A stretch of 8,563 bases of DNA. Origin: a virus (taxonomy: Duplodnaviria > Heunggongvirae > Uroviricota > Caudoviricetes). The notes below the pieces were generated by a model. The model was not told the origin of the DNA. It did not search any database and was given only the letters and a program-made list of their open reading frames with translations. Each line of letters starts with the position of its first letter. The first letter of the stretch is position 1. This document shows, piece after piece, positions 6,314-6,658 of this stretch. The stretch is from the IMG/VR virus record IMGVR_UViG_2529293043_000020, one strand, 5' to 3'. Both the position numbers and the translations under genes were made by a program.

Positions 6314-6658
6314 ATGAAGAAAAAATACGAACTGGTTGTTAAAGGGATAAATAATTACCCGGATAAGATTACTGTTACTGTGGCACCGGAAATTGGTGGG
6401 TATCCGTCACTGTTGTTGCCAGATGTGGCGATTAGTCTTGACCGTACTGAAGGTGCCACGCTGGAGTTTTACGAAGCTGAGGCGAAAAAGCAGGCGAAGC
6501 AGTTTTTCATGGATGTTGCTGCCGGGTTATGTGAAGGGGATGGTCCGTTACCGGAAAAGCGTCCCGTAATTTTAGAGGCGCAGGATGTGTTGATAACCTA
6601 CAGAGGAAAACTACCGGGAATAATTACGGGTTCTCTGAAGACTCCACCGCTGGCCTGA
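6314..6658 (+). CDS. Hypothetical soluble acidic protein inside the lysis cassette (possibly YdfR/DUF1327-like, unverified)
   Basis: 114 aa from ATG 6314 (or GTG 6311), 5 nt after the holin stop, with GGAGAG 8 nt upstream, so likely translationally coupled. No TM or signal peptide. Sequence MKKKYELVVKGINNYPDKITVTVAPEIGGYPSLLLPDVAISLDRTEGATLEFYEAEAKKQ... Confidence 0.6.
   Translation: MKKKYELVVKGINNYPDKITVTVAPEIGGYPSLLLPDVAISLDRTEGATLEFYEAEAKKQAKQFFMDVAAGLCEGDGPLPEKRPVILEAQDVLITYRGKLPGIITGSLKTPPLA

Follow-up and report, generated by a model that had tools for sequence, protein, structure and literature searches.

The lysis cassette described here raises a simple question: what does a 114-aa reading frame do between a pinholin gene and a SAR endolysin gene? 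In phage 21 the two lysis genes, S and R, are directly adjacent and no gene lies between them. Over its whole length the window (the whole stretch of DNA that was analysed, 8,563 nt) has 99.9% matches in many O157:H7 chromosomes, and judging from its sequence it represents the late part of an Escherichia coli lambdoid prophage of the O157:H7 type. The prophage is stx-less. The original prediction placed an uncharacterised ORF of 114 aa at 6314-6658, between pinholin and SAR endolysin, and this was borne out by profile matches on both sides (PF04971 upstream, PF00959 downstream). The three genes are the following.

6094..6309, + strand: class II holin gene of the phage 21 S type (pinholin-like), 71 aa; Pfam PF04971, E 8.5e-33 ("Bacteriophage P21 holin S"); phrog_9876/phrog_20 "holin"
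6314..6658 (stop codon included), + strand: ydfR-family gene, 114 aa, DUF1327; PF07041, E 5.4e-46; 100% identical to WP_000731259.1
6709..7242, + strand: SAR-type lysozyme gene of the RrrQ type, 177 aa; PF00959, E 1.5e-24; 97% identical to Min27 R

The holin is 74.6% identical to phage 21 S and has the family domain (PF04971), the length (71 aa) and the dual start of S-type pinholins, with pinhole formation as a prediction. The possible dual start consists of M1 (6094) and M4 (6103). The motif that contains both (6094-6105) reads MYQM and has no basic residue; phage 21 has MKSM, in which the extra Lys is thought to confer antiholin character on the longer product. The downstream lysozyme has a weakly hydrophobic, Gly/Ala-rich N-terminus (YGLSAAVLALIGAGASA) and an E35-x8-D44-x5-T50 motif, both recognised by reading the sequence. 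These features are those of a SAR endolysin, and membrane tethering and release are predicted for it.

The ORF between them is a real gene and goes beyond a chance reading frame. Its protein evolves under purifying selection: dN/dS lies between 0.2 and 0.4 for every informative allele pair and is about 0.3 among close alleles. Translation is taken to begin at the ATG at 6314, which is also the RefSeq choice; an alternative GTG lies one codon upstream at 6311. The product matches PF07041 (DUF1327) with 155.2 bits against a cut-off of 25, covering profile positions 1-92 of 93, and phrog_406 with an E-value of 3.8e-64. RefSeq labels the identical protein a "YdfR family protein". Together with the gene order essQ-ydfR-rrrQ of the K-12 Qin prophage, these matches confirmed the guess of a YdfR/DUF1327-like protein of the Qin type, for which an HMM or BLAST search had been proposed as the check. 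In NCBIfam no model matches the ORF, and among the PADLOC defence models there was no significant match (best E 0.021). The family YdfR/DUF1327 is thus already catalogued and the gene already annotated.

The gene is common in E. coli. DNA similar to ydfR is present in 2924 of 5426 complete genomes, at up to 8 places per genome, which puts it among the commonest uncharacterised prophage genes of the species, found in more than half of its complete genomes. DNA matching the window allele at 99% identity or more occurs in 362 E. coli records. Wider searches recovered 256 relatives in 5.8 billion proteins, and a full HMM scan of 1.84 billion cluster representatives returned 91 clusters. A close-alignment query of one genome per species (185,579 species) yielded 8 loci, all in Escherichia/Shigella save two MAG contigs. 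These two contigs, labelled Veillonella/Bacillota, are probably misbinned E. coli DNA.

Whether the gene belongs to the lysis machinery can be judged from its distribution among lysis cassettes. Sixteen Escherichia-type loci were compared, the window included and two of them from the MAG contigs just mentioned. The order of class II holin, 4-nt spacer, ydfR and RrrQ-type lysozyme is identical in 16/16. Start to start, ydfR and the endolysin gene are 308 to 1259 nt apart. Escherichia ydfR in the loci compared always directly follows the holin gene and is always accompanied by an RrrQ-type endolysin. The reverse does not hold: of 436 phage records with an S21-type holin, YdfR is found alongside in 101, all of them Escherichia phages. 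The Stx2a phage Min27 has a holin 96% identical and an endolysin 97% identical to those of the window, and no ydfR. In Min27 the endolysin ATG follows the holin stop at a distance of 4 nt and is preceded by the same GGGGAGAG as ydfR in the window. Since Min27 R starts at the position of ydfR and behind the same Shine-Dalgarno (SD) sequence, ydfR occupies the coupled start site of the endolysin gene.

This presence/absence polymorphism between near-identical phage regions, along with a deviating GC3 (0.46 in ydfR vs 0.69 in the holin and 0.60 in the lysozyme gene), is what is expected of a moron. However, the + strand from 5900 to 7500 contains no promoter-like site, and no terminator separates ydfR from the endolysin gene, so the possibility that ydfR has a promoter or terminator of its own was rejected. 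As it lacks these and starts 4 nt after the holin stop, ydfR is in-operon cargo and not a classical moron. From these sequence comparisons ydfR looks like an optional passenger in the lysis operon and not like a lysis component, and it is probably dispensable for lysis. The original prediction had left open whether the protein acts in lysis timing or is cargo; the comparative data favour cargo.

The constancy of the Escherichia arrangement nevertheless makes a lysis-linked role possible, given that ydfR is invariably paired with the holin and the RrrQ-type endolysin there. In its strongest form this would make YdfR a dedicated lysis regulator, for instance a cytoplasmic protein that is synthesised together with the holin and adjusts pinholin triggering or the release of the SAR endolysin. 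All sixteen loci have ydfR directly behind the holin gene, with the 4-nt spacer and a shared SD, and this position and the unchanging SAR endolysin partner speak for such a regulator. However, the product has no hydrophobic segment (the top 19-aa Kyte-Doolittle window reaches 0.89), no signal-like N-terminus and no likeness to holin families of Pfam or PHROG. With neither a membrane segment nor holin likeness, it does not have the makings of an antiholin or a membrane-bound lysis regulator, and to our knowledge the antiholins and SAR-endolysin regulators described so far are membrane proteins. Near-identical S and R genes also exist without ydfR, three quarters of the phage records with this holin type lack YdfR, and homologues in Salmonella phages and elsewhere sit in tail-gene clusters. 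The Keio ydfR deletion was scored as envelope-defective (leaky) in a genome-wide screen, as given in supplementary lists only (PMC3879167 supplement), but a polar effect of the kan cassette on rrrQ is plausible as the cause, because rrrQ directly follows ydfR. Overproduction of K-12 YdfR caused no growth defect (PMC13232886). On balance a dedicated lysis regulator is unlikely.

The hydropathy profile also bears out half of an earlier description of the product as soluble and acidic. It is indeed predicted to be soluble, but the window protein is only mildly acidic (pI 5.46, 15 D+E vs 14 K+R).

The translation signals at both ends of ydfR bear on how the passenger is expressed and on what it does to its neighbour.

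6299..6306, + strand: Shine-Dalgarno-like GGGGAGAG for ydfR, within the last two holin codons, 8 nt before the ATG
6659..6708, + strand: 50-nt SD-less endolysin leader, which holds the palindromic stretch 6672-6698

The duplex of GGGGAGAG with the anti-SD has a dG of -8.1 kcal/mol, in the top 2% of window positions. The original prediction had put the SD a few nt after the holin stop, which is incorrect: between the stop (6307-6309) and the ydfR ATG there is only the 4-nt spacer AGTG. At the endolysin start the best anti-SD duplex is +0.6 kcal/mol (92nd percentile of window positions), in agreement with the earlier reading that this gene has no SD. The nested palindromes noted ahead of the endolysin gene do exist as sequence (CCAGGGATTTGAAATCGATAAACCCTG at 6672-6698), but they do not fold beyond expectation. 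The leader RNA has a minimum free energy of -7.6 kcal/mol vs a mean of -8.5 in shuffled sequences (z = +0.35), and in related loci the inner palindrome is broken with no compensatory change at any pair. A regulatory hairpin was therefore rejected. The SD position and the meaning of the palindromes, both misjudged, are secondary points of the original prediction.

The leader is 89-92% conserved ahead of the endolysin gene in five loci, which include short, 176-aa and 268-aa alleles of ydfR. The part shared with K-12-type and other loci is limited to the last ~10-20 nt. In all sixteen Escherichia-type loci the endolysin start context is ATAAATATMY-ATG (M = C or A, Y = C or T) and SD-less, and in the predicted fold of the window leader neither the start codon nor the preceding ten bases are paired. 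The endolysin start of ydfR cassettes differs from that of Min27 through about codon 5. The fixed SD-less start in ydfR loci thus indicates that the ydfR module carries its own endolysin start region.

Such a takeover could mean that the inserted DNA or RNA is what matters and the protein is incidental, the endolysin being uncoupled from the holin SD and the S:R translation ratio thereby reset. The loss of the SD-coupled start to ydfR and the uniform SD-less start left to R are in line with this, and the overlap between ydfR stop and rrrQ start in K-12 (ATGA) points to coupling. However, an incidental protein would hardly be kept under the purifying selection described above, nor would its core be conserved to 25-45% identity in other genera and genomic contexts. 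We regard it as improbable that the insert alone accounts for the gene. An effect of the insert on endolysin translation is compatible with a functional protein; the two are not mutually exclusive.

The protein itself falls into two parts.

6314..6529, + strand: DUF1327 core, aa 1-72; three beta strands and one helix, Y53-E54 invariant
6530..6655, + strand: C-terminal module, aa 73-114; kept among Escherichia alleles, missing in K-12 YdfR and stand-alone cores, pLDDT about 30

In an alignment of 19 members, which are 24-45% identical to the window protein and all match PF07041, Y53 and E54 (LEFYEAEA motif) are invariant. In the most distant members the protein is stand-alone, has 72-76 aa and spans residues 1-72, which identifies the 72-aa core as the conserved unit. 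An AlphaFold2 model of the core built from a diverse alignment reached a mean pLDDT of 88.3, with strands at residues 6-14, 18-26 and 38-43 and a helix at 50-74. The predicted fold is a three-stranded sheet packed on a long helix (beta-beta-beta-alpha). A model of the full 114 aa from a shallow alignment of 14 sequences had a pLDDT of 40 and was not used in fold searches. Fold comparison of the core gave no informative structural neighbour, and a profile search of PDB sequences gave no match. One class considered was that of the dsRBD-like RNA-binding domains, which have an alpha-beta-beta-beta-alpha fold and a basic RNA-binding surface. DUF1327 cores are acidic (median pI 4.9, median net charge -4), and this acidity appears to fit protein binding better than classical RNA binding. 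The two parts of the gene also differ in history: when alleles of the two main groups are paired, dS is above 1.5 in the core vs about 0.2 in the C-terminal part of the same pairs, from which it follows that ydfR is mosaic.

A host protein has been proposed as a partner of the K-12 homologue. The literature on DUF1327, the RefSeq accession and lysis cassettes yielded one functional study and no other (RNA Biology, 2026; PMC13232886), and the original prediction was essentially right to regard the function as unknown. In that study a two-hybrid screen yielded K-12 YdfR, which bound Rne(1-597), and Rne(1-598) co-eluted with the Strep-tagged protein. The interaction with RNase E maps to K-12 YdfR residues 1-72. 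DNase-resistant nucleic acid (RNA) co-purified with K-12 YdfR, although the authors did not exclude a contaminant, and its overproduction changed few transcripts (PMC13232886). The RNase E-interacting residues coincide with the conserved core, where the window allele is 46% identical to K-12 YdfR, a paralogue.

The K-12 Qin YdfR (b1555, P76160) is otherwise close to the window gene in setting. It belongs to the same Pfam family, lies in the same holin-ydfR-endolysin order, has the same 4-nt spacer and an SD in the 3' end of the holin gene, and is followed by rrrQ with the same type of SD-less start (ATAAATATCY-ATG). In contrast, sequence identity is confined to aa 1-74, the K-12 protein has 103 aa with an unrelated C-terminus, and the overlap of the ydfR stop with the rrrQ start is replaced by a 50-nt gap in the window. 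Many Stx1a- and Stx2c-converting phages, as well as BP-4795, YYZ-2008 and H-19B, encode 98-100% identical 114-aa proteins in the same S-ydfR-R order, with no notable difference.

The reading we favour, with modest confidence as a whole, is that the window gene is a functional member of the YdfR family, an optional passenger of the S-R junction whose expression is coupled to the holin and whose product binds a host protein, RNase E being the best candidate. ydfR would be transcribed within the late lysis operon, and its translation, itself a prediction for the window allele, would most likely be coupled to that of the holin gene via the SD in the last holin codons. By taking the SD and start site that belong to the endolysin gene in ydfR-less cassettes, ydfR would leave the endolysin to start from an SD-less, A/U-rich, unpaired site, as in all ydfR cassettes examined. 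The product would be a soluble cytoplasmic protein whose conserved part is the acidic 72-aa beta-beta-beta-alpha domain. This domain most likely binds a host protein, to judge by homology to K-12 YdfR 1-72, and the catalytic N-terminal half of RNase E is the candidate. The RNase E step is tentative and, taken by itself, rather doubtful. If the target is of the RNase E type, YdfR would act on RNA metabolism late in induction and not on the holin or endolysin.

There are precedents for small phage proteins of this kind. T4 Srd and phiKZ Dip bind RNase E and change RNA decay, and Dip is an acidic protein that binds the C-terminal scaffold of RNase E. Their resemblance to YdfR is a functional analogy, with no sequence or detected fold relationship; Dip shares its acidity with DUF1327 cores, and an effect of YdfR on RNase E activity is hypothetical.

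The 114-aa length of the window allele needs a separate explanation. Longer YdfR alleles of 176, 183, 268 and 287 aa continue into unrelated extensions, and short alleles have several different tails after SLKTPP. The long alleles (176/183 aa, and 268 aa in Stx2 phage 86) share the first ~112 residues and the holin junction with the window; unlike it, they go on into further C-terminal domains, functionally uncharacterised (phrog_1085, phrog_2091), and are accompanied by a convergent antisense ORF. The likeness ends at a defined place.

6646..6661, + strand: junction between the stretch alike in the long (176/183/268-aa) alleles, up to about 6646-6650, and the endolysin leader (BLAST break points)

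Microhomology at this junction (CCACCG/CTACCG and a repeated CTGAAGA) is typical of deletions, and the junction is probably a deletion scar. The 114-aa allele may accordingly derive by deletion from a longer two-gene module. One could go further and regard it as a decaying remnant of that larger module, functionless alone, for which the existence of the long alleles, often with a convergent antisense gene, the microhomology and the variety of short-allele tails all speak. Yet the ORF is intact and its DNA recurs nearly unchanged in the 362 E. coli records, close alleles retain a dN/dS of about 0.3, and the wide occurrence of stand-alone 72-aa cores shows that the core can exist by itself. A functionless remnant is therefore quite unlikely, and a functional core with a shortened tail is what the favoured reading assumes.

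The relatives outside Escherichia are found in a different genomic setting. In the loci examined, non-Escherichia DUF1327 core genes lie outside lysis cassettes. The genes of the Salmonella phages ES18 (gp24, "possible moron; function unknown") and Oslo (gp23) and of locus L015 are flanked by the tail genes gpM and gpL. L011 and L012 have the DUF1327 gene directly upstream of gpL, and in L016 it follows a tail-I-like gene. ES18 gp24 and Oslo gp23 resemble the window protein in having the same core domain, encoded in sense orientation between tightly packed late genes. They differ from it in sequence (about 30% identity), length (86 aa), the gpM-gpL site and the pairing with a convergent gp25.

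A convergent antisense ORF immediately follows the DUF1327 gene in ten loci examined. Six of the ten are in or near tail clusters or on short unplaced contigs (L013 to L017, ES18/Oslo gp25), and the other four belong to lysis cassettes of Escherichia (phage Evi, Stx2 phage 86 orf6, the 176-aa allele loci, PhiR12_2). Examples of the arrangement are:

L026 (ES18), 3968-4520: DUF1327 gene and convergent partner
L029 (Evi), 1801-2340: DUF1327 gene and convergent partner
L002, 1866-2996: DUF1327 gene and convergent partner

Five PHROG families of unknown function (1853, 2572, 10490, 25324, 18578) account for the partners examined, which have no Pfam match and share no homology among themselves. DUF1327 and its convergent ORF may represent an undescribed two-gene module or an insertion hot spot. 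A recurrent small convergent ORF, in tail clusters and lysis cassettes alike and drawn from five families, could also suggest a conflict module (toxin-antitoxin, defence or anti-defence) of which YdfR forms one half, with the window allele as an orphan. However, PADLOC found no significant match for either gene: the long alleles had none, and the sole match below 0.01 among the partners was marginal (E 7.8e-4, 16.8 bits, PDC-M39B). The lack of homology among the partners and the lack of any convergent partner gene in the window also count against a conflict module, which we consider very improbable.

Within Stx phages the gene is unevenly distributed. In the phage collection YdfR is encoded in 41/47 Stx1a-converting and 15/17 Stx2c-converting records, and in 2/124 Stx2a-converting ones. 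If YdfR affected RNA decay or the holin:endolysin balance, it could influence the speed of lysis and toxin release. The most far-reaching form of this idea is that YdfR is a prophage modulator of RNase E or another RNA-handling host protein which is made alongside the pinholin and, together with the SD swap forced on the endolysin gene, retunes late-transcript stability and the S:R ratio. This is speculative and we would not expect it to hold, but if true it would mean altered lysis timing and toxin release in Stx1 and Stx2c phages vs the ydfR-less Stx2a phages. What the analysis adds for an already catalogued family is the mobile passenger behaviour, the takeover of the endolysin translational start, and the coincidence of the 72-aa acidic domain with the reported RNase E-binding region.

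The rest of the window completes the prophage late region. On the + strand the first part contains, in order, a DUF968-like gene, rusA, a DUF1133 gene, a DNA methyltransferase gene, two tRNAs and two Rfam sRNAs. The second part contains a NanS-p-like esterase gene, the class II holin gene, ydfR, the lysozyme gene, an ant-like gene, a small membrane ORF and the start of an Rz-like spanin gene. The features outside the holin-endolysin segment are as follows.

3335-3410, + strand: phage tRNA gene 1; tRNA-Met (CAT) by ARAGORN, tRNA-Ile in RefSeq on a homologous prophage
3491-3567, + strand: phage tRNA gene 2; tRNA-Arg (TCT)
3677-3885, + strand: sRNA STnc100; Rfam match, 175 bits
3887-3946, - strand: sRNA AgvB (anti-GcvB); Rfam match, 56.6 bits vs a gathering score of 56
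6027..6055, + strand: terminator-like hairpin between the NanS-p-like esterase gene and the holin gene; 12-bp stem, loop of 5, then the T-run TTTATTGTTG
7513-8080, + strand: disrupted ant-like antirepressor gene, split into ORFs of 118 aa and 69 aa
8077-8226: 49-aa membrane ORF between the ant-like gene and the Rz-like gene
8234..8563, + strand: Rz-like i-spanin gene, truncated by the window end; from translation and the annotated homologous region in L001 and L003

The STnc100 and AgvB matches sit between the tRNAs and the esterase gene, which is where Stx phages carry stx. The hairpin at 6027-6055 is strong and lies just upstream of the holin gene; late transcription presumably reads through it under Q antitermination. 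Compared with an intact 189-aa gene of phage PPyecE_EH1910, the ant-like gene lacks one base in each of two homopolymer runs, near 7773 and 7863, and it is either a pseudogene or the product of a sequencing error. This gene and the 49-aa ORF separate the endolysin from the Rz-like gene (7243-8233), so that passenger genes are found at two junctions of the cassette.

The endolysin gene itself is disrupted in some relatives of the window. In O157:H7 strain PV15-279 (L001, 8396-10242), which has the identical ydfR allele, an IS1203 element interrupts it, and IS1203 is present among the best whole-window matches too. Many copies of the cassette would thus be lysis-defective.
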